Position numbers and translations under genes: made by a program. The notes under the pieces are model-generated. The model worked only from the letters and a program-made list of their open reading frames with translations, ran no database searches and was not told the DNA's origin. This document shows positions 2,046 through 60,450 of a stretch of 64,000 nucleotides of DNA, one piece after another; the stretch's first letter is position 1, and each line of letters begins with the position of its first letter. The stretch is from Eukaryota sp. GEM-RC1 (Eukaryota). The stretch lies in the NCBI GenBank assembly GCA_040285855.1, contig JAUFOQ010000003.1, positions 1,612,001 to 1,676,000 of the forward strand, in the 5' to 3' direction.

Positions 2046-2066
2046 TTTTGGAACAAAACTTCTCTC

Positions 2067-5000: not shown

Positions 5001-8000
5001 GTTGAAGAAGAACAATCAGTTGAAGTTACCGCTGATGATGATCAAATTACTCATGAACAATTGCCAGATGAAACTGTCGTTGAAGAAGAACAATCAGTTG
5101 AAGTTACTGCTGATGATGAACAAGTTGTTCAAGAAGAATTGCCCGTTGAAACCGTAGTTGAAGAAGAACAATCAGTTGAAGTTACTGCTGATGATGAACA
5201 AGTTGTTCAAGAAGAATTGCCCGTTGAAACCGTAGTTGAAGAAGAACAATCAGTTGAAGTTACCGCTGATGATGATCAAATTACTCATGTACAATTACCA
5301 GTTGAAACTGTCGTTGAAGAAGAACAATCAGTTGAAGTTACCGCTGATGATGAACAAGTTGTTCAAGTTCAATTGCCAGTTGAAACTGTCGTTGAAGAAG
5401 AACAATCAGTTGAAGTTACTGCTGATGATGAACAAGTTGTTCAAGAAGAATTGCCCGTTGAAACTGTAGTTGAAGAAGAACAATCAGTTGAAGTTTCCGC
5501 TGATGATGAACAAGTTGTTCAAGAAGAATTGCCCGTTGAAACTGTAGTTGAAGAAGAACAATCAGTTGAAGTTACTGCTGATGATGAACAAGTTGTTCAA
5601 GAAGAATTGCCCGTTGAAACTGTAGTTGAAGAAGAACAATCAGTTGAAGTTGCTGCTGATGATGAACAAATTACTCATGAACAATTACCAGTTGAAACTG
5701 TCGTTGAAGAAGAACAATCAGTTGAAGTTGCTGCTGATGATGAACAAATTACTCATGAACAATTACCAGTTGAAACTGTCGTTGAAGAAGAACAATCAGT
5801 TGAAGTTACCGCTGATGATGATCAAATTACTGATGAACAATTACCAGTTGAAACTGTAGTTGAAGAAGAACAATCAGTTGAAGTTACTGCTGATGATGAA
5901 CAAGTTGTTCAAGAAGAATTGCCCGTTGAAACTGTAGTTGAAGAAGAACAATCAGTTGAAGTTACTGCTGATGATGAACAAGTTGTTCATGAACAATTGC
6001 CAGATGAAACTGTCGTTGAAGAAGAACAATCAGTTGAAGTTACTGTTGCTGATGATCAAATTACTCATGAACAATTGCCAGATGAAACTGTCGTTGAAGA
6101 AGAACAATCAGTTGAAGTTACTGTTGCTGATGATCAAATTACTCATGAACAATTGCCAGATGAAACTGTCGTTGAAGAAGAACAATCAGTTGAAGTTACT
6201 GTTGCTGATGATCAAATTACTCATGAACAATTGCCAGATGAAACTGTCGTTGAAGAAGAACAATCAGTTGAAGTTACTGCTGATGATGAACAAGTTGTTC
6301 AAGAAGAATTGCCCGTTGAAACTGTAGTTGAAGAAGAACAATCAGTTGAAGTTACTGCTGATGATGAACAAGTTGTTGAAGAAGAATTGCCAGTTGAAAC
6401 TGTCGTTGAAGAAGAACAATCAGTTGAAGTTGCTGCTGATGATGAACAAATTACTCATGAACAATTACCAGTTGAAACTGTCGTTGAAGAAGAACAATCA
6501 GTTGAAGTTGCTGCTGATGATGAACAAATTACTCATGAACAATTACCAGTTGAAACTGTCGTTGAAGAAGAACAATCAGTTGAAGTTACCGCTGATGATG
6601 AACAAATTACTCATGAACAATTACCAGTTGAAACTGTCGTTGAAGAAGAACAATCAGTTGAAGTTACCGCTGATGATGATCAAATTACTGATGAACAATT
6701 ACCAGTTGAAACTGTAGTTGAAGAAGAACAATCAGTTGAAGTTACTGCTGATGATGAACAAGTTGTTCAAGAAGAATTGCCCGTTGAAACTGTAGTTGAA
6801 GAAGAACAATCAGTTGAAGTTACTGCTGATGATGAACAAGTTGTTCAAGAAGAATTGCCCGTTGAAACTGTAGTTGAAGAAGAACAATCAGTTGAAGTTA
6901 CTGCTGATGATGAACAAGTTGTTCAAGAAGAATTGCCCGTTGAAACTGTAGTTGAAGAAGAACAATCAGTTGAAGTTACTGCTGATGATGAACAAGTTGT
7001 TCAAGAAGAATTGCCCGTTGAAACTGTAGTTGAAGAAGAACAATCAGTTGAAGTTACTGCTGATGATGAACAAGTTGTTCAAGAAGAATTGCCCGTTGAA
7101 ACCGTAGTTGAAGAAGAACAATCAGTTGAAGTTACTGCTGATGATGATCAAATTACTCATGAACAATTACCAGTTGAAACTGTCGTTGAAGAAGAACAAT
7201 CAGTTGAAGTTACCGCTGATGATGATCAAATTACTCATGTACAATTACCAGTTGAAACTGTCGTTGAAGAAGAACAATCAGTTGAAGTTACCGCTGATGA
7301 TGATCAAATTACTCATGAACAATTGCCAGTTGAAACTGTCGTTGAAGAAGAACAATCAGTTGAAGTTACCGCTGATGATGAACAAGTTGTTCAAGAAGAA
7401 TTGCCCGTTGAAACTGTAGTTGAAGAAGAACAATCAGTTGAAGTTACTGCTGATGATGAACAAGTTGTTCAAGAAGAATTGCCCGTTGAAACTGTAGTTG
7501 AAGAAGAACAATCAGTTGAAGTTACTGCTGATGATGAACAAGTTGTTCAAGAAGAATTGCCCGTTGAAACTGTAGTTGAAGAAGAACAATCAGTTGAAGT
7601 TACTGCTGATGATGAACAAGTTGTTCAAGAAGAATTGCCCGTTGAAACTGTAGTTGAAGAAGAACAATCAGTTGAAGTTACTGCTGATGATGAACAAGTT
7701 GTTCAAGAAGAATTGCCCGTTGAAACTGTAGTTGAAGAAGAACAATCAGTTGAAGTTACTGCTGATGATGAACAAGTTGTTCAAGAAGAATTGCCCGTTG
7801 AAACCGTAGTTGAAGAAGAACAATCAGTTGAAGTTACTGCTGATGATGATCAAATTACTCATGAACAATTACCAGTTGAAACTGTCGTTGAAGAAGAACA
7901 ATCAGTTGAAGTTACCGCTGATGATGATCAAATTACTCATGTACAATTACCAGTTGAAACTGTCGTTGAAGAAGAACAATCAGTTGAAGTTACCGCTGAT

Positions 8001-10301
8001 GATGATCAAATTACTCATGAACAATTGCCAGTTGAAACTGTCGTTGAAGAAGAACAATCAGTTGAAGTTACCGCTGATGATGAACAAGTTGTTCAAGAAG
8101 AATTGCCCGTTGAAACTGTCGTTGAAGAAGAACAATCAGTTGAAGTTACCGCTGATGATGAACAAGTTGTTCAAGAAGAATTGCCCGTTGAAACTGTAGT
8201 TGAAGAAGAACAATCAGTTGAAGTTACCGCTGATGATGAACAAGTTGTTCAAGAAGAATTGCCCGTTGAAACTGTAGTTGAAGAAGAACAATCAGTTGAA
8301 GTTACCGCTGATGATGATCAAATTACTCATGAACAATTACCAGTTGAAACTGTCGTTGAAGAAGAACAATCAGTTGAAGTTACCGCTGATGATGAACAAG
8401 TTGTTCAAGAAGAATTGCCCGTTGAAACCGTAGTTGAAGAAGAACAATCAGTTGAAGTTACTGCTGATGATGATCAAATTACTCATGAACAATTACCAGT
8501 TGAAACTGTCGTTGAAGAAGAACAATCAGTTGAAGTTACCGCTGATGATGATCAAATTACTCATGTACAATTACCAGTTGAAACTGTCGTTGAAGAAGAA
8601 CAATCAGTTGAAGTTACCGCTGATGATGATCAAATTACTCATGAACAATTGCCAGTTGAAACTGTCGTTGAAGAAGAACAATCAGTTGAAGTTACCGCTG
8701 ATGATGAACAAGTTGTTCAAGAAGAATTGCCCGTTGAAACTGTCGTTGAAGAAGAACAATCAGTTGAAGTTACCGCTGATGATGAACAAGTTGTTCAAGA
8801 AGAATTGCCCGTTGAAACTGTCGTTGAAGAAGAACAATCAGTTGAAGTTACCGCTGATGATGAACAAGTTGTTCAAGAAGAATTACCAATTGAAACTGTC
8901 GTTGATGAAGAACAATCAGTTGATGTTACTGCTGATGATGATCAAATTACTCATGAACAATTACCAGTTGAAACTGTGGTTGAAGAAGAACAATCAGTTG
9001 AAGTTACCGCTGATGATGATCAAATTACTCATGAACAATTACCAGTTGAAACTGTGGTTGAAGAAGAACAATCAGTTGAAGTTACCGCTGATGATGATCA
9101 AATTACTCATGAACAATTACCAGTTGAAACTGTGGTTGAAGAAGAACAATCAGTTGAAGTTACCGCTGATGATGATCAAGTTGTTCAAGAAGAATTACCA
9201 ATTGAAACTGTCGTTGATGAAGAACAATCAGTTGATGTTACTGCTGATGATGATCAAATTACTCATGAACAATTACCAGTTGAAACTGTCGTTGAAGAAG
9301 AACAATCAGTTGAAGTTACCGCTGATGATGATCAAATTACTCATGAACAATTACCAGTTGAAACTGTGGTTGAAGAAGAACAATCAGTTGAAGTTACCGC
9401 TGATGATGATCAAATTACTCATGAACAATTACCAGTTGAAACTGTGGTTGAAGAAGAACAATCAGTTGAAGTTACCGCTGATGATGATCAAATTACTCAT
9501 GAACAATTACCAGTTGAAACTGTGGTTGAAGAAGAACAATCAGTTGAAGTTACCGCTGATGATGATCAAGTTGTTCAAGAAGAATTACCAGTTGAAACTG
9601 TAGTTGAAGAAGAACAATCAGTTGAAGTTACTGCTGATGATGATCAAGTTGTTCAAGAAGAATTGCCAGTTGAAACTGTAGTTGAAGAAGAACAATCAGT
9701 TGAAGTTACTGCTGATGATGAACAAGTTGTTCAAGAAGAATTGCCCGTTGAAACTGTAGTTGAAGAAGAACAATCAGTTGAAGTTACTGCTGATGATGAA
9801 CAAGTTGTTCAAGAAGAATTGCCAGTTGAAACTGTCGTTGAAGAAGAACAATCAGTTGAAGTTGCTGCTGATGATAATGATTCCACTTTAAGAGTTACTA
9901 TTCCTCGACGATCTTCATCTGTTTCTCACGTTGTTCTTCCGTTTCACTCCACTTTAAGCCCAGCATCATCTAAGAGACTTCAAAATCTCTATCTCCAAGG
10001 TTACCTTATGAAACAGTCTGGAATTTTTAAACGTTGGATAAAACGCTGGTTTGTTCTATCCAACAAAGTTTTATCCTACTATGAGAACAGCACAACTTCA
10101 GAACCCAAAGCCCGTCTTCATTTGACCTCTGTAAGTACTGCGGGTGTTATTCCCACAGATGTTTCCATTAAAGAAGACAAACGGGATAGATGTTTCTTTG
10201 TGTGTATAGCACCGGGGGAACGTGTCTATTATCTTGAGGCAAATAGCATTGCTGATCAAAAGAGATGGATTGGTGCTATCACAAAAGCTGCTTCTTCGTA
10301 A
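2067..10301 (+). CDS. Giant acidic repeat protein: N-terminal FFAT-like motifs, ~97 x 26-aa E/V/D-rich repeats, C-terminal PH domain
   Basis: Uninterrupted ORF; likely ATG 2067 (MNFDLDDFQDCLD). PH domain LQGYLMKQSGIFKRWIKRWFVL...YYLEANSIADQKRWIGAI at ~9990-10290. Confidence 0.8.
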   Translation: MNFDLDDFQDCLDVDSDIVDDFDQFEDCVPVDSATLSHPQSTSLNSDTLTESASKPFTEVDMDSSMCDTDALDLHVLNEKCVNITQEELLIETVVEEEQSVEVTADDDQITHEQLPVETVDEEEQSVEVTADDQITHEQLPVETVVEEEQSVEVTADDQITHEQLPVETVVEEEQSVEVTAADDEQITHEQLPVETVVEEEQSVEVTAADEQITHEQLPVETVDEEEQSVEVTAADEQITHEQLPVETVDEEEQSVEVTADDEQITHEQLPIETVVDEEQSVDVTADDDQITHEQLPVETVVEEEQSVEVTADDDQITHEQLPVETVVEEEQSVEVTADDEQVVQEELPVETVVEEEQSVEVTADDDQVVQEELPVETVVEEEQSVEVTADDDQITDEQLPVETVVEEEQSVEVTADDEQVVQEELPVETVVEEEQSVEVTADDEQVVQEELPVETVVEEEQSVEVTADDEQVVQEELPVETVVEEEQSVEVTADDDQITHEQLPVETVVEEEQSVEVTADDEQVVQEELPVETVVEEEQSVEVTADDEQVVQEELPVETVVEEEQSVEVTADDDQITHVQLPVETVVEEEQSVEVTADDEQVVQEELPVETVVEEEQSVEVTADDEQVVQEELPVETVVEEEQSVEVTAADDEQITHEQLPVETVVEEEQSVEVTAADEQITHEQLPVETVVEEEQSVEVTAADEQITHEQLPVETVDEEEQSVEVTADDEQITHEQLPIETVVDEEQSVEVTADDEQITHEQLPIETVVDEEQSVDVTADDDQITHEQLPVETVVEEEQSVEVTADDDQITHEQLPVETVVEEEQSVEVTADDDQVVQEELPVETVVEEEQSVEVTADDDQVVQEELPVETVVEEEQSVEVTADDDQITDEQLPVETVVEEEQSVEVTADDEQVVQEELPVETVVEEEQSVEVTADDEQVVQEELPVETVVEEEQSVEVTADDEQVVQEELPVETVVEEEQSVEVTADDDQITHEQLPDETVVEEEQSVEVTADDEQVVQEELPVETVVEEEQSVEVTADDEQVVQEELPVETVVEEEQSVEVTADDDQITHVQLPVETVVEEEQSVEVTADDEQVVQVQLPVETVVEEEQSVEVTADDEQVVQEELPVETVVEEEQSVEVSADDEQVVQEELPVETVVEEEQSVEVTADDEQVVQEELPVETVVEEEQSVEVAADDEQITHEQLPVETVVEEEQSVEVAADDEQITHEQLPVETVVEEEQSVEVTADDDQITDEQLPVETVVEEEQSVEVTADDEQVVQEELPVETVVEEEQSVEVTADDEQVVHEQLPDETVVEEEQSVEVTVADDQITHEQLPDETVVEEEQSVEVTVADDQITHEQLPDETVVEEEQSVEVTVADDQITHEQLPDETVVEEEQSVEVTADDEQVVQEELPVETVVEEEQSVEVTADDEQVVEEELPVETVVEEEQSVEVAADDEQITHEQLPVETVVEEEQSVEVAADDEQITHEQLPVETVVEEEQSVEVTADDEQITHEQLPVETVVEEEQSVEVTADDDQITDEQLPVETVVEEEQSVEVTADDEQVVQEELPVETVVEEEQSVEVTADDEQVVQEELPVETVVEEEQSVEVTADDEQVVQEELPVETVVEEEQSVEVTADDEQVVQEELPVETVVEEEQSVEVTADDEQVVQEELPVETVVEEEQSVEVTADDDQITHEQLPVETVVEEEQSVEVTADDDQITHVQLPVETVVEEEQSVEVTADDDQITHEQLPVETVVEEEQSVEVTADDEQVVQEELPVETVVEEEQSVEVTADDEQVVQEELPVETVVEEEQSVEVTADDEQVVQEELPVETVVEEEQSVEVTADDEQVVQEELPVETVVEEEQSVEVTADDEQVVQEELPVETVVEEEQSVEVTADDEQVVQEELPVETVVEEEQSVEVTADDDQITHEQLPVETVVEEEQSVEVTADDDQITHVQLPVETVVEEEQSVEVTADDDQITHEQLPVETVVEEEQSVEVTADDEQVVQEELPVETVVEEEQSVEVTADDEQVVQEELPVETVVEEEQSVEVTADDEQVVQEELPVETVVEEEQSVEVTADDDQITHEQLPVETVVEEEQSVEVTADDEQVVQEELPVETVVEEEQSVEVTADDDQITHEQLPVETVVEEEQSVEVTADDDQITHVQLPVETVVEEEQSVEVTADDDQITHEQLPVETVVEEEQSVEVTADDEQVVQEELPVETVVEEEQSVEVTADDEQVVQEELPVETVVEEEQSVEVTADDEQVVQEELPIETVVDEEQSVDVTADDDQITHEQLPVETVVEEEQSVEVTADDDQITHEQLPVETVVEEEQSVEVTADDDQITHEQLPVETVVEEEQSVEVTADDDQVVQEELPIETVVDEEQSVDVTADDDQITHEQLPVETVVEEEQSVEVTADDDQITHEQLPVETVVEEEQSVEVTADDDQITHEQLPVETVVEEEQSVEVTADDDQITHEQLPVETVVEEEQSVEVTADDDQVVQEELPVETVVEEEQSVEVTADDDQVVQEELPVETVVEEEQSVEVTADDEQVVQEELPVETVVEEEQSVEVTADDEQVVQEELPVETVVEEEQSVEVAADDNDSTLRVTIPRRSSSVSHVVLPFHSTLSPASSKRLQNLYLQGYLMKQSGIFKRWIKRWFVLSNKVLSYYENSTTSEPKARLHLTSVSTAGVIPTDVSIKEDKRDRCFFVCIAPGERVYYLEANSIADQKRWIGAITKAASS
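2330..9875 (+). repeat. Coding tandem array, 78-bp unit (LPVETVVEEEQSVEVTADD-EQVVQEE / -DQITHEQ), ~97 copies
   Basis: Direct periodicity of gttgaaactgtcgttgaagaagaacaatcagttgaagtt; two interspersed unit subtypes. Confidence 0.97.
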
Positions 10302-11131
10302 TTTTTCATTTTTGTGTTGTATTTTATGCGATTTAGTTGTACATAAATTGTATCAATATGTTCCTTTGTTATAATATTTGAAGAATGTTATTTTTGTATG
10401 CACTTTCTCAAGTTCATATGTGTATTGAAGTGTATAAATTCAAACACGAACTTTCGATGTATTTTGTATGCCTGTAGTAAGTCAATAAATTCAATTTAAA
10501 ATACAAATGGCAAAAATAATATCAATAATGAAATTAAGCTAGTGAAACCTAAAACTAGATCGTATTCAAGTGTATATTGAGACAGAACCCAGTCCACTTC
10601 CACAATGAAATGGGTCAATGGTGTCCACCGTCCATGTCTTTCCAAAAGTTCACACAAAGGTTATGAACACGATGCATACTTTGTACAGAATGTGCAATTG
10701 GCACTCAAGTGGCTCCGTTTCGAATGTGAATGGATATGGGAAGATTTTCAGTGTATCAAAAAAAACAGATCTGTACAATATTTTGAACAATCGGTCTAAA
10801 GCAGACTACCAGTGATTTAGACCATTTGGTAGAATGAACAGATATTGATATTGTTTGGGGAAGTGTTCTTTAAGATATCATAAGGAATACTCGTGACAAC
10901 TTTGAGTATGAAACAGACAATGTGAGAACAAGCTTATTGACAAGAAATAGATGCAAATAGATAGAAAAACGATCACATAACAACTCTAAGGTGCCACTGG
11001 ACCTACAATAGCAGTAATGTTTAACCGTAAATCTTGGGATTCATTAGATCAAAAGGGCCAAAAAATTGATCCACAACAATCAAATGAAACGTGTGTATTG
11101 GTAGTCAACACTTTTACATCCACACCTGACT

Positions 11132-14100
11132 ATGAATCGGGACATCGTTGTCCTATTGTTCCTGTTAGTCTCCACTGCTATCGTAGATGGGCATGATCGT
11201 CAGGATCTCAGCTCCTTTGAACTCAAAAACCGTTCCTTCTTTTTCGATCCCTTCTTGAATTTGGACAAGTGGACTGTTGTTTCAAATGATAAGTATCATG
11301 GTCAGTGGAGCGTTGAAGTCGTGAAACCACCAACAGGCATTCCCTTCGATGAAGGTCTGGTTATGAAAACCCCTGCTTCGTATCATGCTATTTTCACAAG
11401 GCTCAAACAGCCTGTAGTTTTAAAGCAACAGTCCTTGGTTCTTCAGTATGAAGTTCGCTATCAGAAACACCCAATCTCTTGTGCTGGGACTTACATGAAG
11501 CTTCTTAGAACTACTCCAACTGGTTCTGATTTCTCTGACGATACTCCTTACGTTATCATGTTCGGCCCCGATGTCTGTGGTTCCTCCAAAGTCCACTTCG
11601 TCTTCACATCTTTAAACCCAATCACCAACAAGTACGAAGAACATCATTTGGTTAATCCTCCTTCTGTTCAGAATGATGGTCTTACCCATCTCTACACCCT
11701 CATCGTTGATCCCAAAACCAATGACTTCCAAATCAAGATAGATGACAAGATCGTGTCTTCTGGAAGTCTTTTGACTTCTTTGAACCTCCCGTTAACCCTC
11801 CCAAGCAGATTCCTGACCCTAAAGTCCAAAAACCTAATAACTGGGATGACCGTCTACTTATTCCAGATCCTTCAGTCCAAAAGCCTTTGTACTGGGATCA
11901 GCCAGAGTTCATTCCTGATCCAGATGCTGTTAAACCTGACGATTGGAATGAAGATGCTGATGGTGAATGGGAACCTCCAGTTGTTGATAATCCCGAGTTC
12001 TATGGTGAATGGATTCCTCCAATGGTTTTGAATCCTGATTATAAAGGAAAGTTTGAAGTTCCACTCATTGACAATCCTAATTACTTTCAACTATCTCAGC
12101 CATTAAAGAAGTTGAAAGTTGAAGCTATTGGTATGGAAGTTTGGACTTTGGATGAGGATATTCTCATTGACAATGTTCTTTTAACTCACGATGAGACTGT
12201 AGCAATGAGTCTAGCCAAAGAAACCTTTCATGTAAAGCAGGCAAATGAAGTGGAGGAAACAATTGTTGAGGAACTTCCTGTTGATGAAGAATTAAAGGCA
12301 GTGGTTAAAGAGACGTTCTTGCTGATTGTTAGATTGTTTTCAAATTCTTGTCAGGCAATTGATGACGTGCTTCCAATCGGCAGTGTCTGTTCTCTTGTTG
12401 TTTTAACCATTCTTTTTGTTGTTATTTTCCAGCCATTTAACCGTGACTACAAACATGCTGTTCACCCTGAACTTAAAGTAAATGAAGGTTCTAAGAAGCT
12501 TGGTAATGATATCAGTTCTATTGTTGATCAGATTGACGAGGTAGAACCTGGAGAGAATCTTGGTGAAACTGAAGAGAGGAAGCAAGACGAGCATGATGAG
12601 TTTACTGACGATGTTGTTGAAACTGCAGAACGTTTACCAGTTGAACCTGTTGTTGGAGAAGAACAATCAGTTGAAGTTACTGCTGATGATGACCAAGTTG
12701 TTCAAGAAGAATTGCCAGTTGAAACTGTTGTTGAAGAAGAACAATCAGTTGAATTTACTGCTGATGATGAACAAGTTGTTCAAGAAGAATTGCCAGTTGA
12801 AACTGTAGATGAACAAGAACAATCAGTTGAAGTTACTGCTGATGATGAACAAGTTACTCATGAACAATTGCCAGTTGAAACTGTTGTTGAAGAAGAACAA
12901 TCAGTTGAAGTTACTGCTGATGATGATCAAATTACTCTTGAACAATTACCTGTTGAAACTGTAGTTGAAGAAGAACAATCAGTTGAAGTTACTGCTGATG
13001 ATGATCAAATTACTCATGAACAATTACCTGTTGAAACTGTAGTTGAAGAAGAACAATCACTTGAAGTTGCTGATGATGATGAACAAATTACTTATGAACA
13101 ATTGCCAGTTGAAACTTTCGTTGAAGAACAATCAGTTGAAGTTACTGCTGATGATGAACAAATTACTCATGAACAATTACCAATTGAAACTGTAGTTGAA
13201 GAAGAACAATTGCCAATGGAAACTGTAGTTGAAGAAGAACAATCAGTTGAAGTTGCTGATGATGATGAACAAATTACTCATGAACAATTAGCTGTTGAAA
13301 CTGTAGTTGAAGAAGAACAATCAGTTGAAGTTACTGCTTCTGATGAACAAATTACTCATGAACAATTAGCTGTTGAAACTGTAGTTGAAGAAGAACAATC
13401 AGTTGAAGTTACTGCTTCTGATGAACAAATTACTAATGAACAATTACCAGTTCAAACTTTCGTTGAAGAAGAACAATCAGTTGAAGTTGCTGATGATGAT
13501 GAACAAATTACTAATGAACAATTAGCTGTTGAAACTGTAGTTGAAGAAGAACAATCAGTTGAAGTTACTGCTTCTGATGAACAAATTACTAATGAACAAT
13601 TAGCTGTTGAAACTGTAGTTGAAGACGAACAATCAGTTGAAGTTACTGCTGATGATGAACAAATTACTCATGAACAATTACCTGTTGAAACTGTAGTTGA
13701 AGAAGAACAATCAGTTGAAGTTACTGCTGATGATGAACAAATTACTCATGAACAATTACCTGTTGAAACTGTAGTTGAAGAAGACCAATCAGTTGAAGTT
13801 GCTGATGATGATGAACAAGTTACTCATGAACAATTGCCAGTTGAAACTGTAGTTGAAGAAGAACAATCAGTTGAAGTTACTGCTGATGATGAACAAGTTA
13901 CTCGTGAACAATTGCCCGTTGAAACTGTCGTTGAAGAAGAACAATCAGTTGAAGTTACTGCTGATGATGAACAAGTTACTCGTGAACAATTGCCAGTTGA
14001 AACTGTCGTTGAAGAAGAACAATCAGTTGAAGTTACTGCTGATGATGAACAAGTTACTCATGAACAATTACCAATTGAAACTGTAGTTGAAGAAGAACAA

Positions 14101-16173
14101 TCAGTTGAAGTTACTGCTGATGATGAACAAGTTACTCATGAACAATTGCCAGTTGAAACTGTAGTTGAAGAAGAACAATCAGTTGAAGTTACTGCTGATG
14201 ATGAACAAGTTACTCGTGAACAATTGCCAGTTGAAACTGTAGTTGAAGAAGAACAATCAGTTGAAGTTACTGCTGATGATGAACAAGTTACTCGTGAACA
14301 ATTGCCAGTTGAAACTGTAGTTGAAGAAGAACAATCAGTTGAAGTTACTGCTTCTGATGAACAATTAGCTGTTGAAACTGTCGTTGAAGAAGAACAATCA
14401 GATGAAGTTACTGCTGATGATGATCAAATTACTCATGAACAATTACCAATTGAAACTGTTGTTGAAGAAGAACAATCAGTTGACGTTACTGCTGATGATG
14501 AACAAATTACTCATGAACAATTACCAATTGAAACTGTCGTTGAAGAAGAACAATCAGTTGAAATTACTACTAATGATGAACAAGTTACTCATGAACAATT
14601 ACCAGTTGAAACTGTAGTTGAAGAAGAACAATCAGTTGAAGTTACTGCTGATGATGAACAAGTTACTCATGAACAATTACCAATTGAAACTGTAGTTGAA
14701 GAAGATCAATCAGCTGAAGTTACTGCTGCTGATGAACAAATTACTCAAGAACAATTACCAATTGAAACTGTAGTTGAAGAAGAACAATCAGTTGAAGTTA
14801 CTGCTGATGATGATCAAATTACTCATGAACAATTACCAGTTGAAACTGTAGTTGAAGAAGAACAATCAGTTGAAGTTACTGCTGATGATGATCAAATTAC
14901 TCATGAACAATTACCAGTTGAAACTGTAGTTGAAGAAGAACAATCAGTTGAAGTTACTGCTGATGATGAACAAGTTACTCATGAACAATTACCAATTGAA
15001 ACTGTAGTTGAAGAAGATCAATCAGCTGAAGTTACTGCTGCTGATGAACAAATTACTCAAGAACAATTACCAATTGAAACTGTAGTTGAAGAAGAACAAT
15101 CAGTTGAAGTTACTGCTGATGATGATCAAATTACTCATGAACAATTACCAGTTGAAACTGTAGTTGAAGAAGAACAATCAGTTGAAGTTACTACTAATGA
15201 TGAACAAATTACTCATGAACAATTACCAATTGAAACTGTAGTTGAAGAAGAACATTCAGTTGAAGTTACTACTAATGATGAACAAATTTCTCATGAACAA
15301 TTACCAATTGAAACTGTAGTTGAAGAAGAACATTCAGTTGAAGTTACTACTAATGATGAACAAGTTACTCATGAACAATTACCAATTGAAACTGTAGTTG
15401 AAGAAGAACATTCAGTTGAAGTTACTACTAATGATGAACAAGTTACTCATGAACAATTGCCAGTTGAAACTGTCGTTGAAGAAGAACAATCAGTTGAAGT
15501 TACTGCTTCTGATGAACAAATTACTCATGAACAATTGCCAGTTGAAACTGTCGTTAAGGAAGAACAATCAGTTGAAGTTACTGCTTCTGATGAACAAATT
15601 ACTCATGAACAATTGCCAGTTGAAACTGTCGTTAAGGAAGAACAATCAGTTGAAGTTACTGCTTCTGATGAACAAATTACCCATGAACAATTGCCAGTTG
15701 AAACTGTCGTTAAGGAAGAACAATCAGTTGAAGTTACTGATGATGGTAAGGATTCCACTTTAACAGTTACTGTTCCTCGACGATCTTCATCTGTTTCCCA
15801 CGTTGTTCTTCCGTTTCACTCCACAACAACTCGAGCATCATCAAAGAAACTTCGAAATCTCTATCTCCAAGGGTATCTCATGAAACAATCTGGAGTGCTT
15901 AAACGTTGGAAGAAACGTTGGTTTGTTCTCTCCAACCAAGTATTATCCTACTATGAGAACAGCACTACTTCAGAACCCAAAAACCGTCTTCATTTGACCT
16001 CTGTAAGTACTGTGGGTTCTCTGCCGAAACATTTTGCCATTAAAGTAAACAATCGGGATAGATGTTTCTTTGTCTGTGTAGCACCTGGGGAACGTGTCTA
16101 TTATCTTGAGGCAAATAGCATTGCTGATCAAAAGAGATGGATTGGTGCTATTACAAAAGCTGTTGCCCCTTAA
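11132..16173 (+). CDS. Calnexin-like lumenal domain + TM + ~40 acidic 26-aa repeats + PH domain; frameshift at ~11780
   Basis: Signal peptide MNRDIVVLLFLLVSTAIVDG; calnexin/calreticulin motifs VLQYEVR, CAGTYMKLL, YVIMFGPDVCG; P-domain IPDPDAVKPDDWNEDADGEWEPP; IGMEVWT; TM ~12376-12438; PH ~15860-16160. Confidence 0.85.
12630..15740 (+). repeat. Coding tandem array, 78-bp unit, ~40 copies; same family as 2330-9875 but more heterogeneous
   Basis: Direct repeat periodicity; peptide EQLPVETVVEEEQSVEVTADDEQITH. Confidence 0.95.
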
Positions 16174-16752
16174 CTGTCCTTTTTTGTGTTGTATATTATT
16201 CGATTTCGTTGTATATTTTAAATAAATAGTTAGATTCTCAAAATCTTTATCAATAGTTGTATCAGTCGTCGATTTGAAAAACAACTTGTGAACCCAACAA
16301 TGTAAATTGAAATGGTGTAATTATCGAGCTTATAATATGACACATTGAACCCATGCACACTCTTTCCTTGACTCTATACAATAAAGTTCTTAACACCAGA
16401 AAAGACACTAATGTTGAATTCATTTGGGGTGCATACTCCCCAAAATCATTTTACCCCAAATACTCTTCACCCCATAACCACATCCCCAAACTGATTCACT
16501 TATACCTTCTTTGATGGATTCCATACATCGTTTGATATCCAGTGTTGAGCTTCTTTCAAGATAGAGACGTGTTTGCAGGTATTCGTTCTTAGACTTGTGA
16601 ACCGTGTTCATCCATGTCAAGAATAAAATCAACGTTGTACAACCATCTTACAACACATACATCACATTGACATCTTATCCTCCCAAGGAAAACATCAAGG
16701 TTTGCTTCATGAAGCTTCATGCATCAGAAGACACAAAGACACCAAGTTATAA

Positions 16753-17601
16753 CCCCTGCTTGGATTCTATCTCCGTTGAGTCGATATATGGATAGCTTTT
16801 TCTCCTCTCCCGTTGATGTCATGCTGCCACCTTGTTGTTTGTATTTGACCCAATATGAGGCGGAATCCCCTGCTTGGATTCTATCTCCGTTGAGTCGATA
16901 TATGGATAGCTTTTTCTCCTCTCCCGTTGATGTCATGCTGCCACCTTGTTGTTTGTATTTGACCCAATATGAGGCGGAATCCCCTGCTTGGATTCTATCT
17001 CCGTTGAGTCGATATATGGATAGCTTTTTCTCCTCTCCCGTTGATGTCATGCTGCCACCTTGTTGTTTGTATTTGACCCAATATGAGGCGGAATCCCCTG
17101 CTTGGATTCTATCTCCGTTGAGTCGATATATGGATAGCTTTTTCTCCTCTCCCGTTGATGTCATGCTGCCACCTTGTTGTTTGTATTTGACCCAATATGA
17201 GGCGGAATCCCCTGCTTGGATTCTATCTCCGTTGAGTCGATATATGGATAGCTTTTTCTCCTCTCCCGTTGATGTCATGCTGCCACCTTGTTGTTTGTAT
17301 TTGACCCAATATGAGGCGGAATCCCCTGCTTGGATTCTATCTCCGTTGAGTCGATATATGGATAGCTTTTTCTCCTCTCCCGTTGATGTCATGCTGCCAC
17401 CTTGTTGTTTGTATTTGACCCAATATGAGGCGGAATCCCCTGCTTGGATTCTATCTCCGTTGAGTCCATATATGGATAGCTTTTTCTCCTCTCCCGTTGA
17501 TGTCATGCTGCCACCTTGTTGTTTGTATTTGACCCAATATGAGGCGGAATCCCCTGCTTGGATTCTATCTCCGTTGAGTCGATATATGGATAGCTTTTTC
17601 T
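16753..17601 (+). repeat. Near-perfect 114-bp tandem repeat, 7 full copies + 1 partial
   Basis: Unit cccctgcttggattctatctccgttgagtcg...gaggcggaat starts at 16753, 16867, 16981, 17095, 17209, 17323, 17437, 17551; one substitution seen, in copy 7. Confidence 0.97.
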
Positions 17602-17687
17602 ATGTTGTGAAAACACTTCCATCTCTGCTGTTGTATGTACTCTACTTCTATTCATGTGTTATCCCTTCCCATCCTCCGTTCCCAAAA

Positions 17688-17729
17688 GACCTCACCGCTG
17701 ATGGTGATATTGAATCCAATCCAGGACCC
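17688..17729 (+). other. 2A / StopGo ribosomal skipping peptide DLTADGDIESNPG|P
   Basis: Exact match to the D(V/I)ExNPG|P consensus, in frame with ORF 16719-18578. Confidence 0.9.
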
Positions 17730-18400
17730 GTAACTCAAGAAGCCATAAACTCAGTTTATCCTCATCAATGGGTTGATGACGAAGCGATAGTGGAGTACTG
17801 TAAAGTGATATTTCAAGAAGCAGAGTTAGACTTTGAAAGCATGTTTATCCATCCGACCACATTGCTTCAATATATTGTTTCACCAGATGCCCCGCTAGAT
17901 CAATGGTTGTTGACGAAAATTGAGAAAAATCAAATCATAAACTCCAAATACCTCTTTGTTCCCCTTAGTGATACCATGACTAGAAATGCTAATTATTCCA
18001 GAGAAGGTGTCACTGGTTCTCATTGGGGTTTAGCCATTATAGACTGTTGTGAAAAGGAATGGATCTTCATTGATCCAATGTTAACTACCGTCGATATGAG
18101 TAAGTCTATGGTAAAATCAGCTGTAGACATATTATTCGAAGTACTTGTGCCATGGGGGTATGATTTCCGTTATGTGCATGTGACTAAAAGTCAGTCTGCT
18201 AACGACTTTGGAGTTTATGTCATTGCGTATATTCAAAAATATGTTGAACTTTTTAAAAGACTCATGTATGTTCCGTCTCTGATGTATATGGAGTCTGATT
18301 TGGTCCAAGTGAACATTGAACTTCAAGCAGACATATTTCGTGAAGAAATTCTGGAGGTCTTGTCTCAACAAAGGACACTTTATCTACAACAACGTCAAAC
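17730..18400 (+). CDS. SENP8/NEDP1-like (Ulp1/C48) cysteine protease domain; catalytic Cys replaced by Phe
   Basis: QWVDDEAI; YLFVPLSD...GSHWGLAII (His 18021); IFIDPM (Asp 18072); SQSANDFGVYV with TTT at 18207 where DCG is expected. Confidence 0.8.
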
Positions 18401-18858
18401 CACAGTAGCTCCTATTGTACCATCGTTACCCATTCAACCTCCTGCCGGTAAAGAACATCCACTTCAATTCCTCTCACAGGTTCACGTCTTGCTAGCACTA
18501 AAACATCTACTGGTTTTAGCACTAAAAAAAGTAAGCCCAAAATTTCTGATATTCCATCACCACGAGGTTCACCTTTAATTCAACGAAATAAATTTAGAAC
18601 TACCAGCTCCCTTGTTTCAACTGGTGACACTCCAATACGAAAGACTCACCGCCGTATGTCCACATTGGAATCATCTGAAGTACCACCATCTGAATTGGCT
18701 CCATCACCATCTGAAGTACCACCATCTGAACTACCACCAAAATCACAGGCCTCCATTATGTCGTATCCATCGCCAATTCAAGAAGAAATCCAAAAAATGG
18801 AAGTAAATCTACACACTGAGCCTATAGAAGAAGAAATACAAATTCAAGACTTTCTTAA

Positions 18859-19790
18859 ATCCCCTCTACTTTGGAACAATCTACCAACTTTTTGTTTAAT
18901 TCATGTTCAAAGAGATTTTGCCAAAAAGAAAGAATTATTGGCAGAAATGTTCAACTTGTTCAAGAAGATGATGATTACATTGAAACTGTTGAAGGTGAAG
19001 CTGAAGATCAATTAGAAGTTAAACGTGATTCTTCTGTTGATCCGATTGTATCAATTTCCATCCAGATCATTGATCACAATGAGTTTAATGAAAAGCATTT
19101 ATTTTCTCATGGCAATTTTGATACTACAAACTTGGATTTGTGTACTTTACATATTTCAGATAGTGAATCCAGTATGCTTAAAAACTTCATTTCCTTCATT
19201 ACTCAACATTGTCCACGATTGTTTGTGAGTTATGACTTTCACTTAGATACATTTCCCTTTCTTGTATCACGTTGTCAAGTCCTCAAAATCAATACAACGT
19301 TTACTTTTCCAGAATTTAAACCCTACATTCCCTTTTGGTTCAACAAATGGTGTAAGGAAACAACTTTTGGTCCGTTTTTTAGTCTTGATTTGAATGCTGT
19401 ACTGAAGAATTTTTATGTCTTTACTGGTGGCCGTTTTTTGGAAAATGTTGTTCAAATTTTTCTTGAAATGAATAATTTTTCTAAAAATGAAACTGTCAAA
19501 CGCTTGGAAGAACTTAATCATGACTCTGATCCTGATGAAGTTCAATTGGTCAATAATGTCCAAAACTTGCATGGCATAATTGACAGTATTAATGTTTTAG
19601 TTCCAGACAATCCCAAAGTGAAGGTCGATAAGATTAAAAAGAAATTTGTAAGAAATTTGGAGAAAGTAAATGAACTTTGGGCCAAGGAATCGACAAGACC
19701 GCTATTGTTGATCAACTCAATTCAACAATTACCTCTGATTGAGTACTTGTTGGCTGACCTATTGGATCCCAAAAACAAACATTACGTTCA
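18859..19790 (+). CDS. Family-B DNA polymerase 3'-5' exonuclease-like (DEDD fold) domain, catalytically degenerate
   Basis: DPIVSISI...SESSMLKNFISFITQHCPRLFVSYDFHLDTFPFLVSRCQVLKI...SLDLNAVLKNFY...LENVVQIFL parallels the Pol delta exo pattern (DPVIQI...E..LL..W..FI...DPD.ITGYN...FDLPYLI.RA..L...D.L.V...L..V...FL). ExoI DxE appears as NVQ. Confidence 0.65.
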
Positions 19791-19799
19791 AAGTCACCA

Positions 19800-22681
19800 A
19801 TGAAAGTGGTTAAGAAACGACTAGACAATGTTGTGTCCAAAGCGAAGGTTAAATTTATTGAATCTCGTGTTAAGAGAGCTCACCAAGTAAGAGTCCGTAG
19901 TACTCTCTTTTTGAAACATTTTTTTGTTCATAATTTTCACCATTCTGGTATTTTAGGTTACATTCAGAAGTTACTGCCTGCTACTGTTCCAAATGTAACT
20001 GTTAAGGAAGAAATGAATTCTGATACAGATGAGTCAACTGAAGAAGAAACAGATGTACCTTCAGAGTCTATCCATGCTGCTACTCCTCCTATTAAATTAG
20101 AAAATATTGAAGATGCGAGTGATGAACCTAAACCTGAACCTGACCTTTGGACTAAAATTCAAACTGCCAAAATTGAATTGCCAGACTGGAAGAATTTTTT
20201 ACGTTGAAATCAATGGAACAAGTGTTGTCTATGATGACGATTAGGGACAACAAACTTGTAAACAATCAGAATCATATGGAGACTGTACAAGAATCGTTAA
20301 CAAACATAATTTCTAACACAAATGATGGCTCAACTCAAAATCAGTTTGCTCAACACTTATTGTTTCATTACATTCCTCGTTTAGAACTAGCTGCTGATTC
20401 CGTTGGACTTGATAGGATTGTGTTTCCCAGTAGCCATCGTTTATCTCCTATATTGCATTACATGGCTACAGAAATTATTACAAATTACAAGAATAACATG
20501 AGTGAACACTTTCACGAATATGTTTTTCAAGTATTTAATTTGGTTACCCTGAAAAAGATAGACTTAACAAGCTTACTGATGAGAATCAACGACAAGAGTT
20601 GTGTACAAAGCTTAATGAAGTCAGACAGTTGATCATTAATGGGGAAATTTCAAAAATTAATTTTCAAGATGTTGAAATGTTTCCTGATCCCAATTCTAGA
20701 CTGAGTTTACTATTTTTTAATTATTTGTTTACTTTTTTTGAAGGTAAAACGGAGAAAACAATCTATTATGCTGAAAAAGTAGATCCTTTGAAATTCTTAA
20801 GTCATGCAGTGTATTTGAAACGTCTTGTTGAAGACTCTTGTACTGGTGTTACTGCCAATAATCCTTTTCCTCTGACAAAATCATTGATTCCTAATCATAT
20901 CAGATTGGATACTACATGGTTTAAAAAAGTTTATGCATCAGAAATTAAAGGTAGCTTTGATGACGTTCGAAAAGATATTTGGCACTCAGTTTTGAAACCA
21001 AAGTTTCTTCCAAAGTCATTGTCTCATGACTTCAAATACAGTTCCATTTCTACAGATGGAGTTAGCTGTAGTTTAATGATGATGCGGAAAGATCTGCTTG
21101 ATGGGAGAGGAAATCCTCATAAGAAGGTGAAAGCTGTTGACTACACAGCTACTGAAAGGTACATTGATTCTTTGAGTTCCACAGAAATTCAAAACTTAAA
21201 TTTGAAATCAAAAAGAATTGTTGCTATTGATCCTAATCAGCATGATTTGATGTATTGTGCTTCTTTAAAATCTAAGGAGGAAAAGAAAATCGAAGGTTTC
21301 GATACATCAGCCAATCTCAGAAGAAGAAAGATTTGTCCAAAATCGTCAAAGAAAAAAGGAAGCTTGAAAAAATTAAAAAAGGAATTGAAGGATTGGAAAG
21401 ACGCACCTACTATTGACAAACCATCAACTGTCAAGTTGAAAAATCGAGACAATTGGAAAGTATTCAGATACACTGCTGGGGAACGCAATGCCGATATTAA
21501 AAAGTCTCCATGGAAAAGAAAAAAACAAGGAAGGAAAGAAAAAGAGCTAAGAGAAAGAAGAGGAAGCTGGAGAAGAAAATAAGACGATACAATCTCCACC
21601 GTTTATCTGAATCCGAACGGTTACAACAATATTCTACTCAATTTATTCACATTCCAGATGGCAGACGCATTGACATAAATGGGCAACAAATTTTAGATCA
21701 ATGGGGCTCTAACTCGCCAGGCAGTAGATCTTGTGATTTGACTCAGTATTCTGATTTTGTTCTTGGTAAAGAAATTACCTGTTCTTTATTACGATCACCC
21801 ACTACTGATCAAAGAAATACTGAAGGAATTTACGAAGAAAAGTGGTTTAGGAGGAATCGTCTCACACAGTATTCAAGAAAGGAACGAAGTGAGAAAAACA
21901 TGCTTCACAGATTTGCTCTCCAATTTGGTAACCCAGATGAAGTCGTTGTTGGGTATGGAGACTGGAACGACACTACTTTTCGTCGAAGAAGAGGTAAAGC
22001 ATCTACTGTAAAAGGTGCTTCAATTCGGAAATTATTGGGAAAATTTGGATTTAAAGTGTTCCTAGTTGATGAATTTAAGACCAGTAAATGTTGCTCTGCA
22101 TGTGTTTCCAGAAACGACGAAGGTATCTGTTCCAATCCTGAAAGGATAAAAGTCACTGATCCTCATTGGAAGAAGAAGTTACAGAAGGAAGAGAAAGAAT
22201 TAAAAAGGAAATTATGGAACACAATCACTTAGACAATATTGTGGAGCGTAACTTTGATGAAGAATGGACTGACCAGTTGCCATTTTCGAAAGAAAGATTG
22301 AAGAACAACAAAGTCTCACCATGGGGCTTAGTTGAATGTGCTAAATGTCATGTCCTCTGGAATAGAGACTTCAACTCTGCTATCAATATTTACAATATTG
22401 TAAATGGAACCATTCAAGGTCAAGGTAGACCTGCCATCCTCGAGAGACCAAAATCTCAAACAACACCTGTCGTGGATGGCGGGAATACAGATCAGATTCC
22501 TAAGAAAAAGACTGTGAGTAAGGGTAAGGGTAAGGCAAAACGTCCTCCAACAACTGTCAGAGGTCCTAACAAGTGTCGTATATGTTCTCAACCTGGACAT
22601 AACAAAACAACTTGTCCAAATAAGCCTAAGAAAGATGTACCCAAGGACTCACACGTAAACCAGAAAGATCAGGAATCTTGA
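19800..22681 (+). CDS. Fanzor1: Fanzor1 (eukaryotic TnpB-derived RNA-guided RuvC endonuclease), ~960 aa, split by ~4 frameshifts; C-terminal CCHC knuckle
   Basis: N-terminal ILHYMATEIITNYKNNMSEHF; HIRLDT; ISTDGVSCSL; RuvC-I IVAIDPN (Asp 21229); VVVGYGDW (GDW at 21957); VDEFKTSKCCSAC (Glu 22071); CAKC..WNRDFNSAINI (Asp 22367); CRICSQPGHNKTTC at 22574-22615. Confidence 0.9.
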
Positions 22682-22791
22682 ATCTATGAAGTTAGCTCGT
22701 TTTAAAAGACTTTGCGAATGAGGACTTTGTCAACTGTGGTTTATCTCATGAAAATGCTGAAGGGTTATGCCCTTATGCATTTGGAATGAAA
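22682..22791 (+). ncRNA. Candidate Fanzor omega-RNA scaffold
   Basis: Directly after the Fanzor stop. Stem atgag(22718-22722)/ctcat(22745-22749); hairpin aaatgc(22752-57)...aaggg-ttatg-ccctt...gcattt(22777-82); then ggaatgaaa. Boundaries inferred. Confidence 0.5.
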
Positions 22792-23728
22792 TTCACAGTA
22801 ATGTACAGTAGTAAATTATAAAAAACGAAGAAACAAAAGAGAAAGTAGCAATGCGTCATTCGTCTACTCCCAAAATATTTTGTCTATCGCCTCTCCCAAT
22901 TTCCAAAAAGGTACGTGAAACCGCCAAATCCTACAACTTGTCTCCAAATGAAGATAATGGCGTGGAACAACTAATAACAGTATGCATTTGAAGTGAAAGC
23001 GGGCAGACACTATTTCTGCTTTAAATCACTACACTAGTTGTAAAAATATATTTTGCTATGATATACAGAAAGATGAAGCAGTCTATAGATTGAAGCATAT
23101 GTTGGAGTGAACCGAAATTGAACTTCCTTCGAGGCATTCTTGTTTTAATTCATAAATTCTACTGACCCATGGCCTTGTATTTAAAGAGTTATTTCCCAAA
23201 AAAAGAAGTCCAACTGTTCATACTAGTACTGATATTCAACAAGTACAATAATTAAACATGATTTTATGATCAGTAATTTAGGTAAATGATCAATAATGAG
23301 TTGGCAAAACCGCGAATTGAAGGTATGTTGTGTGATGATTGTACTCATACTTTGAATGTTATTACGTTTATTGTTTCCATTTGTGTAGTATTTGACTGTA
23401 TTTCGTCCTACAACGTAAAAAGTTAAGTAAGCAAAGTAAATAAATCAAAATTGTCCAACTCGATATCAATATTATTTGGATAGAATGTGCTTGTTACAGT
23501 GAAACAGTTACACACCACATTTGAGCATGACGAAGATTGAGAACTAATGGTCATGGTGCAGTAGTTGTTTTCGTTAACAAGTGCTTCAGTACCATAAATA
23601 AGTTATTGACTCATGCGTTTGATTTGATTTCGCAAAATAACGGATTAACGATTTATAGAGGAAGGAAAAGACAGTTTATCCAAGGAGAAATTCTCTCCAA
23701 GACTTCTCTTGAATTCATCCCCTCACAC

Positions 23729-24187: not shown

Positions 24188-24401
24188 GCAATTGCACCTC
24201 CTCCAACCCATGCACCTCCTCCAATTTATGTATAGATGGGGTGGTTAAATCATATCCCCTTTGTACTTTGTTTTTTTTTGGACAATGTAATAAACATCAT
24301 GCTTTTTTAATGTTTATTTTCTAGATGCAACACAGAAATGATTTACACTGTGGTTTCTATAGTGAGCGTGTTGTAACAAACTTGTCAATAAATGCTTAAA
24401 C

Positions 24402-25067
24402 CAGGGGTGGGAAAACAATATTGCTCTTCCAATAGTGCAATAAATATTGCTCCAATATTTATTTCCGCTCTTTGAGGTGGACCAATATTTATTGTTGCAC
24501 CGGTTAACTATTGCAATATTGCTAATAACTTTTAGTTGTTCATTTTGTTGTTGTACTTCTCCACTTGGACTCCCAAAACCCGTTTTGGTGCCTTATGTGT
24601 TTAAATATAGTGAGAGTTGATTATTCGGTGATGATTTCTAGTTGTTGTCTTATCATAATGTCTGTCATTTGAGCTCATTTCGAGTGTTTCCTGAAGTGCA
24701 ATGTAAATTCTTTCTTCTGAAGCCATTTTCTCTGAAGCCCTCCAGATAATGATTCAAGATAACAGTGATTTTTGGGATCAAGCTACTGTAAGACTTATCA
24801 TGAGCAGTAAAAACAATCGAAGATGTAGATAATGGTATTGACTCAACACCAATATCTTCATCTTCGATACTATTCTCAAGACTATTGAGATTATTTCCGA
24901 TATTTCTGATTATGAACAATAGAATCTGCGGGTTTTTCGTAATAAATACATAATATGATTCTTATTGTTGCAATATTTATTGGTACTATTTCAGAAATTG
25001 CAATATTTATTTTGTGGCTAATATACAGTATGTTTATATTTATTGCAATATTGTTTTCCCACCCCTG
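24402..25067. mobile_element. Non-autonomous hAT element (MITE), 666 bp
   Basis: Perfect 23-bp TIR caggggtgggaaaacaatattgc; 8-bp TSD GCTTAAAC (24394-24401, 25068-25075); subterminal (a)atattgc repeats. Confidence 0.92.
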
Positions 25068-30969: not shown

Positions 30970-31494
30970 TCATGTTATGACGTGTGAAACAATAAAAGTT
31001 ATTTAAATCATAAATTTAAGGCTAATGGTTTTCATGCAAAAATTGAACCTTTATTTGCTAATCTTTCTGATCAGCCAAAAGTTGATAGAAGTCGTGGTGA
31101 TTTGATTGGTCATTGGTTATCTTGTCAGGAAATTATTATGGATTTCACGACTGTTGATCCTTGTAATTCAAGATCAATTTCCAAAAATTTTGATGATGAT
31201 TTTTCTGCTCTTAAAGTGGCTGAAAAAGGAGAAAATTCAAGGTACTGTCACTTAATTAACCAATTGAATGTTGACAGGTACAATTCTTTTGTGTTTCAAC
31301 CCTTTGCGATGTCGATATACGGTAATATTGGGCCAGCTGCACAAGGTTTTTTAATTTCCTTTGATAAATTGCGTTCTGAGTATGGTAAAGCTTTCAATGA
31401 AAATTTTTGGTTGAGTAGGTTAACGTTTGCGTTGTTTCGTTCAATGCACAGATATTTTAATTCAATTTTAGGTAAGTTGTTCGGTGATGGATAG
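30970..31494 (+). pseudogene. 3' fragment of a non-LTR retrotransposon with restriction-like endonuclease (CRE/SLACS-like)
   Basis: KIEPLF...RGDLI...IMDFTTVDP...AEKGENSRY...FQPFAMSIYGNIGPAAQGFL fits the RLE C-terminal pattern EP..R.D...D.T...AE..K..KY...PF....G..G. Confidence 0.6.
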
Positions 31495-60111: not shown

Positions 60112-60450
60112 GAGAGAAACGGTTCAGTTAGTGACAGATGCAGATGTAATTGAAATTGTCAAATAGATCAATATTTAGAAAGAGTGTGTTAGTTTATTGA
60201 TGTTGTAGTAGTATTACAAGAACAAATCTATGAAACAATAGACCACATTTTTACCAGTCAATGGCACCACAGATCTCAAAAATAAAATTCTGTTCTTCAC
60301 CATCAACTGATCTAAAATCGAATTACAATATATTTGCATGGAACGACACAGTTCAAAGTTTCAAACGTTAACCCACTCAACCAAAAAATTTCATTGAAAA
60401 CTTTACCATACTCAGAACACAAAAAAAAACTGTTCTCAAACACAGATCCT

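Follow-up and report, generated by a model that had tools for sequence, protein, structure and literature searches.

The locus considered here, in the genome of the single-celled eukaryote Eukaryota sp. GEM-RC1, raises the question of whether eight open reading frame (ORF) pieces lying on one strand encode a single long protein built around a Fanzor1 RNA-guided nuclease, and of how an element encoding such a protein could spread. These pieces lie within positions 16713-22681 of the window, that is, the whole stretch of 64,000 nucleotides that was analysed (contig JAUFOQ010000003.1, positions 1,612,001 to 1,676,000), to which all positions below refer. A sequence-only reading had proposed a polyprotein of about 1,700-2,000 amino acids with a defined order of modules. 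This order (114-bp repeats, 2A motif, Ulp1/C48-like domain, Ser/Pro-rich linker, PolB exonuclease domain, Fanzor and CCHC knuckle) was found on the window and is kept, in order and in frame, by sibling proteins and, apart from the protease and the CCHC knuckle, by a relative, P0066. The size estimate holds as well: read with X at seven frame breaks, the ORF contains 1,988 amino acids from the first ATG, with no internal stops, and 1,651 after the 2A motif. The module architecture is real and conserved, and the window copy is a damaged, 5'-truncated member of a multi-copy mobile element, this copy itself being probably defective. The modules, among which the proposed repeats and 2A peptide were both recovered, are the following:

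16753-17601, + strand: leader made of a 114-bp unit repeated 7.4 times in tandem, with an open frame and a start in mid-unit (units 99% alike; leader of the family-B type)
17688-17729, + strand: 2A (StopGo) motif DLTADGDIESNPGP, a motif match whose activity is predicted
17730-18350 (end approximate), + strand: Ulp1/C48-type cysteine protease domain of family A, with His at 18021, Asp at 18072 and Cys replaced by Phe at 18207
18461-18858, + strand: Ser/Pro/Lys-rich linker, defined by ORF composition
18859-19773, + strand: PolB-type 3'-5' exonuclease-like domain (Pfam PF03104; homology to the P0066 exonuclease)
19800-22450, + strand: Fanzor1 nuclease (REC/WED, RuvC and C4 zinc finger), broken at 20195, 20552, 21519 and 22202
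21226, + strand: RuvC-I motif IDPN
21957, + strand: GDW motif
22068, + strand: RuvC-II motif DEFKTS
22361, + strand: RuvC-III motif NRD
22574-22615, + strand: C-terminal CCHC zinc knuckle (Pfam zf-CCHC_2, E 0.006, below cut-off)
22679-22681, + strand: stop codon of the ORF

Protein searches detected close relatives that are all labelled Eukaryota sp. GEM-RC1, an unclassified eukaryote in the NCBI taxonomy. Family A, which displays 86-96% identity with the body of the window element, includes 8 protease-bearing proteins. The RuvC-I piece falls, in this family, into an 18-member cluster at 90% (15 members listed, 14 of them named, on at least 8 different contigs), and eight RuvC-I pieces of 277 aa share 94-99% identity; this cluster and these identities indicate that the element family is multi-copy and mobile. 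Family B is 42-49% identical to the window in the protease (4 proteins) and 67% identical in the Fanzor (4 named proteins and P0059), and we infer that the proteases and the Fanzors of this family are parts of a single element. Two siblings, P0043 (801 aa) and P0053 (800 aa), are continuous in frame from a point within the exonuclease to beyond RuvC-I, and the family-B proteins P0001 and P0006 span window positions 19372-21306 over three breaks, the same three as P0043 and P0053. A protease gene, KAL0233075, and a Fanzor piece, KAL0233079, differ by four in accession number. As judged from these relatives' proteins, the upstream domains are conserved in other copies, so that the earlier concern that they might be a chance addition to the window was not borne out. 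The sibling gene models are predictions, and at least P0056 seems to bypass a break by means of a modelled intron.

The best 150 of 197 representatives recovered with the central Fanzor piece were examined for long N-terminal extensions, and P0066 was the only one to possess such an extension. In a single ORF of 1,473 aa, it contains a leader, a 2A motif (GDVEANPGP), a Ser/Pro-rich linker, a PolB exonuclease (PF03104, E 5e-13, with FDVET, GYNCDKFD and YCVND) and a complete Fanzor1 that is 29% identical to that of the window over 754 columns. The two exonuclease domains align with a score of 149 (shuffles 38 +/- 6, maximum 68 of 300). The P0066 linker has a like composition and occupies the same place, its sequence similarity being not significant (score 58 versus 47 +/- 8 for shuffles). 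A tree of 49 rows was built with the window, 4 fusion rows, 6 fragments and 38 stand-alone Fanzor1 (P0002, P0003 and the first 36 representatives with lengths of 580-860 aa) by a quick search with midpoint rooting and no bootstrap. The fusion rows and the 6 fragments form one side of a branch with an SH-like approximate likelihood ratio test (SH-aLRT) value of 98, apart from the 38 stand-alone proteins. Because of this branch and of the single ORF of P0066, the combination of 2A, exonuclease and Fanzor is, on these comparisons, ancient and has been conserved; the protease seems to have been added later, unless P0066 has lost it. The fragments P0060-P0063, P0067 and P0069 represent two or three more families, at least, on the same Fanzor branch.

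The proposal of a single long ORF therefore stands for 2A, exonuclease and Fanzor (P0066) and for exonuclease and Fanzor (P0043/P0053 and P0001/P0006). It does not extend to the protease, since none of 4 siblings crosses the break that follows the linker (J2, below); the protease would nevertheless belong to the same ORF as the rest of the chain.

The core (G/H)D(I/V)ExNPGP of 2A peptides is present as GDIESNPGP in the window, and the motif was detected in 11 of 207 proteins scanned, namely 10 sibling proteins and P0066. Some peptides bearing this motif are inactive, and skipping also depends on upstream residues (PMC3708506). The 2A motif is located upstream of all modules, as in the APE-type retrotransposons that lack long terminal repeats (non-LTR; PMC3708506), and would therefore trim the leader rather than split the modules. 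Virus-like processing of a polyprotein, as suggested earlier, is not what this layout describes: cleavage between modules was rejected, only one 2A being present, 5' of every module.

The 114-bp leader unit of the window is also present, at 1-3 copies, in the family-B proteins P0024, P0025, P0027 and P0032. Their N-terminal start peptide was not found in any of the three frames upstream of the window array and, since the array also begins in mid-unit, the window copy is truncated at its 5' end. B leaders are associated with B proteases in 4/4 proteins and A leaders with A proteases in 6/6, whereas the window copy is the only mix of leader B and body A among the 11. From this otherwise fixed pairing, the window copy is likely a recombinant of a family-B leader and a family-A body, with a crossing in the shared 2A segment; a misassembly is less likely. 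The two leader types are homologous, their repeat number varies and both are followed by the same 2A, which would fit a role of the 2A in giving the working protein a fixed N-terminus. The folding of the 114-bp repeat unit is no better than that of shuffles (z -0.31).

The SENP8/Ulp1-like protease announced previously corresponds to a Ulp1/C48 domain whose Pfam match is under the family cut-off in the window (E 0.002) and over it in siblings P0021 and P0024. The His-Asp-Cys triad is incomplete in the window, where the catalytic Cys is a Phe (QSANDFGV), and complete in the 10/10 siblings covering the site. The exonuclease-like domain was recovered with an E value above the PF03104 cut-off (E 2.4e-7). 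PolB exonucleases are described by three motifs, ExoI, ExoII and ExoIII. The DEDDy set (ExoI DxE, ExoII D, ExoIII YxxxD) is entirely present in P0066 and incomplete in the window, P0043 and P0053. The ExoII Asp is a Thr in the window (19228-19254; best ungapped score 28, next 8) and in P0043 and P0053, the two siblings covering the site; the best ExoIII match in the window has an Asn in place of the Asp (score 14, next 8), and an alternative near the domain end, YLLAD (YLLFD in family B), has a lower score. These substitutions suggest that the domain is likely inactive in the window's family, although motif-intact in P0066. No placement of ExoI was found by an ungapped motif scan. The motif DIET/YIET at 18974 was considered as ExoI and rejected, with a rejection short of proof, because it belongs to an acidic insert which is shared by P0066 and there follows the true ExoI. 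The best solved-structure matches of the P0066 exonuclease are yeast polymerase delta (E 4e-4), which singles out no donor; in the ESM Atlas, the same domain matches PF03104 clusters at 0.94-0.95 without a clear donor, and P0043 gave only leads below 0.9. A search with the exonuclease ORF of the window gave 0 matches among 663 candidates of 172-550 aa, the exonuclease-bearing siblings being of 800 aa and in another cluster.

The Fanzor was also recovered as described, with its RuvC triad, GDW motif, zinc finger and CCHC tail. SpuFz1 is matched by two window pieces (E 2.4e-7 and 5e-4), GtFz1 and PpFz1 by one each. The RuvC-I Asp is included in a DPN motif as in SpuFz1, most Fanzors having DPG (PMC10711439), and the RuvC-II Glu lies six residues ahead of the first CxxC (EFKTSKCCSAC), a spacing shared with P0066. 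All parts of the motif D-X(125,275)-TS-XX-C4-X(5,50)-RD (PMC3627910) are present in order, with a D-to-TS distance of 283 (281 in P0066), slightly above the range. A structure model of P0043, built from 80 sequences, has a mean pLDDT of 72, the Fanzor part being mostly above 85 and the exonuclease part low. Of its 19 matches in the PDB, all 7 with E <= 0.001 are PpFz, SpuFz and GtFz structures; in BFVD, its matches are proteins from large DNA viruses, either uncharacterised or labelled 'transposase'. These motifs, sequence matches and modelled folds, all of the Fanzor1 kind, remove the doubt that the RuvC region might not resemble TnpB/Fanzor, and support membership of Fanzor1, including a predicted REC/WED fold closer to Fz1 than to TnpB or Fz2. 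The window Fanzor thus resembles SpuFz1, GtFz1 and PpFz1 (PDB 8GKH, 9CER and 9CF1) in sequence and predicted REC/WED/RuvC fold, and shares with them the D-E-D triad, the six-residue distance from the Glu to the zinc finger, the GDW motif and a 3' untranslated region with predicted structure. It is set apart by its CCHC tail and by the 77-78 residues that separate the two CxxC pairs of its zinc finger. P0056 and P0057 also have the CCHC tail, as does P0063, which is more distant.

The ORF is interrupted by seven breaks, given here with pattern counts from 204 proteins, those of the window itself excluded:

J1, 18452-18460, + strand: 4-base loss in this copy only; 7 siblings read through, 0 share the break
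J2, within 18859-18950, + strand: one-base break, -1 sense; homopolymer candidates T5 at 18889 and A5 at 18923
J3, 19771 (A5 run), + strand: 2 siblings read through, 0 broken
J4, 20195, + strand: 9 siblings read through, 0 broken
J5, 20552, + strand: 5 siblings read through, 5 broken
J6, 21519, + strand: 0 siblings read through, 12 broken
J7, 22202, + strand: 1 sibling reads through, 0 broken

Three breaks, each attributed to a missing A, had been noticed before. They were recovered, but the four breaks inside the Fanzor had escaped notice. The one placed near 18450 is instead a 4-base loss by comparison with the sibling peptide GKEHPTTSIPL. That placed near 19790 is indeed one base short on an A5 run, which the sibling peptide LLDPKKQTLRS locates at 19771, and that near 18857 is a one-base break whose place is only bounded to 18859-18950. 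A crossover scan of J2 against P0066 was flat (scores 81-89); the view that J2 necessarily lies at A5 18923 was dropped, an ungapped scan mildly favouring the other frame. Siblings read through five of the seven breaks. Six of the seven can be placed on A/T runs of at least 5, each one base short (P 2e-7 with J2 at A5, a placement chosen by us), and such runs make up 5.6% of the coding length. The collapse rises with run length (0/20 for runs of 5, 4/12 for 6, 1/4 for 7 and 1/1 for 8, J2 being counted at A5 by choice). The suggestion that the host genes bear like lesions is sustained by one T-run break shared by 2/3 window copies of a calnexin-like gene, and fails for J1. The six A/T-run breaks look like long-read errors. 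For J2 and J6, reading through the break would quite probably correct a sequencing error, with a small share of probability for real recoding and the remainder for inherited lesions.

At the ends of the element, the following features were detected:

16747-16752, + strand: candidate left target-site duplication (TSD) or target-adjacent motif, TTATAA (weak), abutting the truncated repeat array
22682-22821, + strand: candidate omega-RNA scaffold, predicted to form two stems, with its end at the candidate right TSD
22816-22821, + strand: candidate right TSD TTATAA, the same 6-mer as at the left end

Fold z values were -2.99 for 22682-22821 and -3.98 for 22735-22800, both windows picked after a first fold, and -1.14 for the wider 22640-22880; Rfam gave no match for the candidate omega-RNA. 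A predicted 3' hairpin is present in this region, and the 5' end of the window copy is missing. No terminal inverted repeats (TIRs) were found between the candidate ends in this copy deprived of its true 5' end. In agreement with the sequence-only reading, no transposase was found in the element with Pfam, nor any reverse transcriptase. The one locus has no clear tail or long TSD, the window contains no second copy, and no related DNA locus was confirmed in the viral or metagenome contigs scanned. A bacterial promoter scan, irrelevant for eukaryotic DNA, gave nothing above chance.

It is moderately probable that the window holds a damaged copy of a transposase-less element that makes one long protein and spreads by Fanzor cutting and copying by host repair. 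The variable repeat leader would be shed by a predicted 2A skip, and the remaining chain (protease-linker-exonuclease-like-Fanzor1-CCHC) would count some 1,650 residues. The Fanzor chain would load the omega-RNA from the element's own 3' end and cut target sites free of the element, and host break repair would then likely copy the element into the cut site. The exonuclease could trim the cut ends (P0066) or, once inactive, bind DNA ends (the window's family), and the protease could strip SUMO or NEDD8 from host repair or silencing factors. Copying would begin at the 3' end and often stop early, which would produce both the truncated 5' ends and the leader swaps. As far as cutting, the scheme follows described Fanzor1 biology (PMC10432273, PMC10711439, PMC13565253); that cutting leads on to new copies is suggested by the absence of transposase, the 5' truncation and the leader exchange, a pattern like that of CRe-1/2/3 and MCi-2 (PMC3627910). 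A helper enzyme in trans (Helitron Rep or reverse transcriptase) may also be needed.

Several points weigh against this reading. No protein was found that holds protease and exonuclease together (the protease search covered representatives of 218-695 aa), none of 4 siblings crossing J2, and P0066 has neither protease nor CCHC knuckle. None of 12 siblings crosses J6, which parts RuvC-I from RuvC-II and RuvC-III. The even split of J5 (5 broken, 5 whole) means that some shared breaks may be inherited mutations. The ends, the TSD and the omega-RNA come from one DNA locus, and a TTATAA within 250 nt past the stop has a chance of 0.29, the TSD being not significant alone. Gene calling and the length limits of the searches confound the excess of 3' pieces in the copy number, and cutting and copying by the element are predicted activities.

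A bolder version is doubtful: a self-sufficient RNA-guided copy-and-paste in which the Fanzor1 fusion would cut, the exonuclease ready the ends, the protease lift SUMO-type control and host repair copy from the 3' end, P0066 being a natural nuclease-exonuclease editor.

Rather unlikely is a non-autonomous retroelement encoding the same long protein and copied through an RNA intermediate, with the non-LTR reverse transcriptase supplied in trans and the Fanzor cut possibly used as the site of priming. An N-terminal 2A marks APE-type non-LTR elements and RNA viruses (PMC3708506; bioRxiv 10.64898/2026.09.24.754024), and the tandem-repeat leader, leader swapping, 5' truncation, A-rich sequence 3' of the stems and C-terminal CCHC all speak for it. 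In Ingi, L1Tc, CR1 and L2, one long ORF likewise bears a 2A close to its N-terminus, and copies are 5'-truncated (PMC3708506), but the window element differs from these APE-type elements by having neither APE nor reverse transcriptase.

Real recoding at J2 and J6, with programmed -1 frameshifting or transcriptional slippage rationing the downstream domains and yielding complete nuclease at low level, is unlikely. J6 is broken in the window and in 12/12 siblings and lies on an in-register A AAA AAA heptamer, a sequence that follows the slippery-site rule for frameshifting; J2 is broken in 4/4 siblings. No stable stimulatory structure follows J6 (z -0.96) or J2 (z -1.05), however, P0066 is continuous at both places, and the collapse of long runs together with the host-gene example accounts for the shared breaks. 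The named relatives were sequenced with R9.4 Nanopore cells if GEM-RC1 is the isolate GEMRC (PMC11316075), a link suggested by the names.

Still less likely is that a transposase in trans is wholly responsible for moving the element as an ordinary non-autonomous DNA transposon (of the Helitron2 or the cut-and-paste kind), the Fanzor only restoring excised donor sites and the added domains being passengers. This reading overlaps with the favoured Fanzor-cutting and host-repair element in its protein and differs in what moves the DNA. This situation has been described for Fanzor1 (PMC3627910; PMC13565253; PMC10530073), Ulp1 domains are carried on Ginger and Mutator transposases (PMC2836005), and a hAT element is present in the window. 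Against it, no terminal inverted repeat lies between the candidate ends, and the element matches nothing else in the window, hAT included; the passenger idea is at odds with an exonuclease kept fused in frame in two lineages only 29% identical and with its catalytic residues retained in one. Chance juxtaposition of unrelated decayed pieces, which the seven breaks and the lost catalytic Cys of the window copy might evoke, is hardly credible given the order and frame kept by siblings and P0066, which refute it for 2A-exonuclease-Fanzor, and the proximity of KAL0233075 and KAL0233079.

Among known systems, most Fanzor1 contain 600-700 aa (PMC11423790), to which the window element adds about 650 post-2A residues with protease and exonuclease-like domain. 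The Spu-1 element has 30-nt inverted repeats (PMC10432273), unlike the window element, where none was found. CRe-1/2/3 (Chlamydomonas, Helitron2-type), MCi-2 and MCi-5 (Mucor) are closer: like the window element, they have no TIRs or else no fitting transposase, and they share 5' truncation, intact 3' ends, exchangeable 5' parts on a Fanzor-coding 3' part and AT-rich TSDs, as the candidate TTATAA here (PMC3627910). Fused domains or a 2A are not reported for them in the available text of PMC3627910, unlike in the window element. The comparison with Helitron-type ends (asymmetric terminal inverted repeat, 5' hairpin) is limited by the missing 5' end. A C48 protease fused to the DNA cutter of a mobile element is shared with Ginger1 and Mutator transposases (PMC2836005), from which the window element differs by an RNA-guided RuvC cutter, an N-terminal protease and no DDE domain. 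Laboratory-made fusions of exonucleases and DNA-binding domains to Fanzor2 follow the same design idea (PMC12923547); an active exonuclease lowered editing and DNA binding raised it (PMC12923547), while nature offers both the intact P0066 and a likely inactive form.

The suggestion that no Fanzor of this architecture has been described met no contradiction: in the literature on Fanzor polyproteins, Ulp1 and exonuclease fusions (a search bounded short of Repbase and supplements, where an earlier record may lie), no such element was found, the papers on Fanzor and exonuclease appearing to be engineering studies and reviews. The words 'protease' and 'exonuclease' are absent from the main texts of PMC3627910 and PMC10711439; PMC10530073 has no 'exonuclease', and 'protease' in its methods only. 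Within this literature, the Fanzor1 element variant with fused exonuclease and probably protease is new. The role of Fanzors in their hosts is open, and many lie in elements without matching transposase. A recently amplified family (94-99% identical) that welds end-processing and deSUMOylase-type domains to a Fanzor points to the purpose of the cut, and many near-identical insertions in one genome make the copying mechanism readable from their flanks. With its full set of catalytic motifs, P0066 offers a compact and naturally occurring fusion of Fanzor1 and exonuclease that is directly testable, and the 2A peptide is now placed in an element without reverse transcriptase.

Concerning the rest of the window, the calnexin-like gene family occupies 1923-16173, 43534-46304 (- strand) and 57269-60127 (- strand), with long acidic 75-78-bp repeats and a terminal PH domain; in one copy, a leucine-rich-repeat-like sequence is fused instead of that ending. 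A Ty3/gypsy-type LTR retroelement (33088-39296) displays reverse transcriptase, RNase H and integrase over frame-shifted ORFs. The hAT-type element (60452-62302) has terminal inverted repeats and is flanked on each side by cagatcct, an 8-bp target duplication; it also has short sub-terminal repeats, and its zf-BED transposase ORF ends prematurely at 61970. Leucine-rich-repeat-like ORFs form long arrays, spread over several frames, at 49031-60127 (- strand) and 62321-63514, the family name being given by appearance only. A 168-aa ORF (30988-31494, + strand) without Pfam match resembles the C-terminal end of a retroelement protein. Finally, the stretch 24400-24600, which includes a short inverted repeat (24438-24454/24478-24494, 94%), could represent the end of a small transposon without coding capacity.

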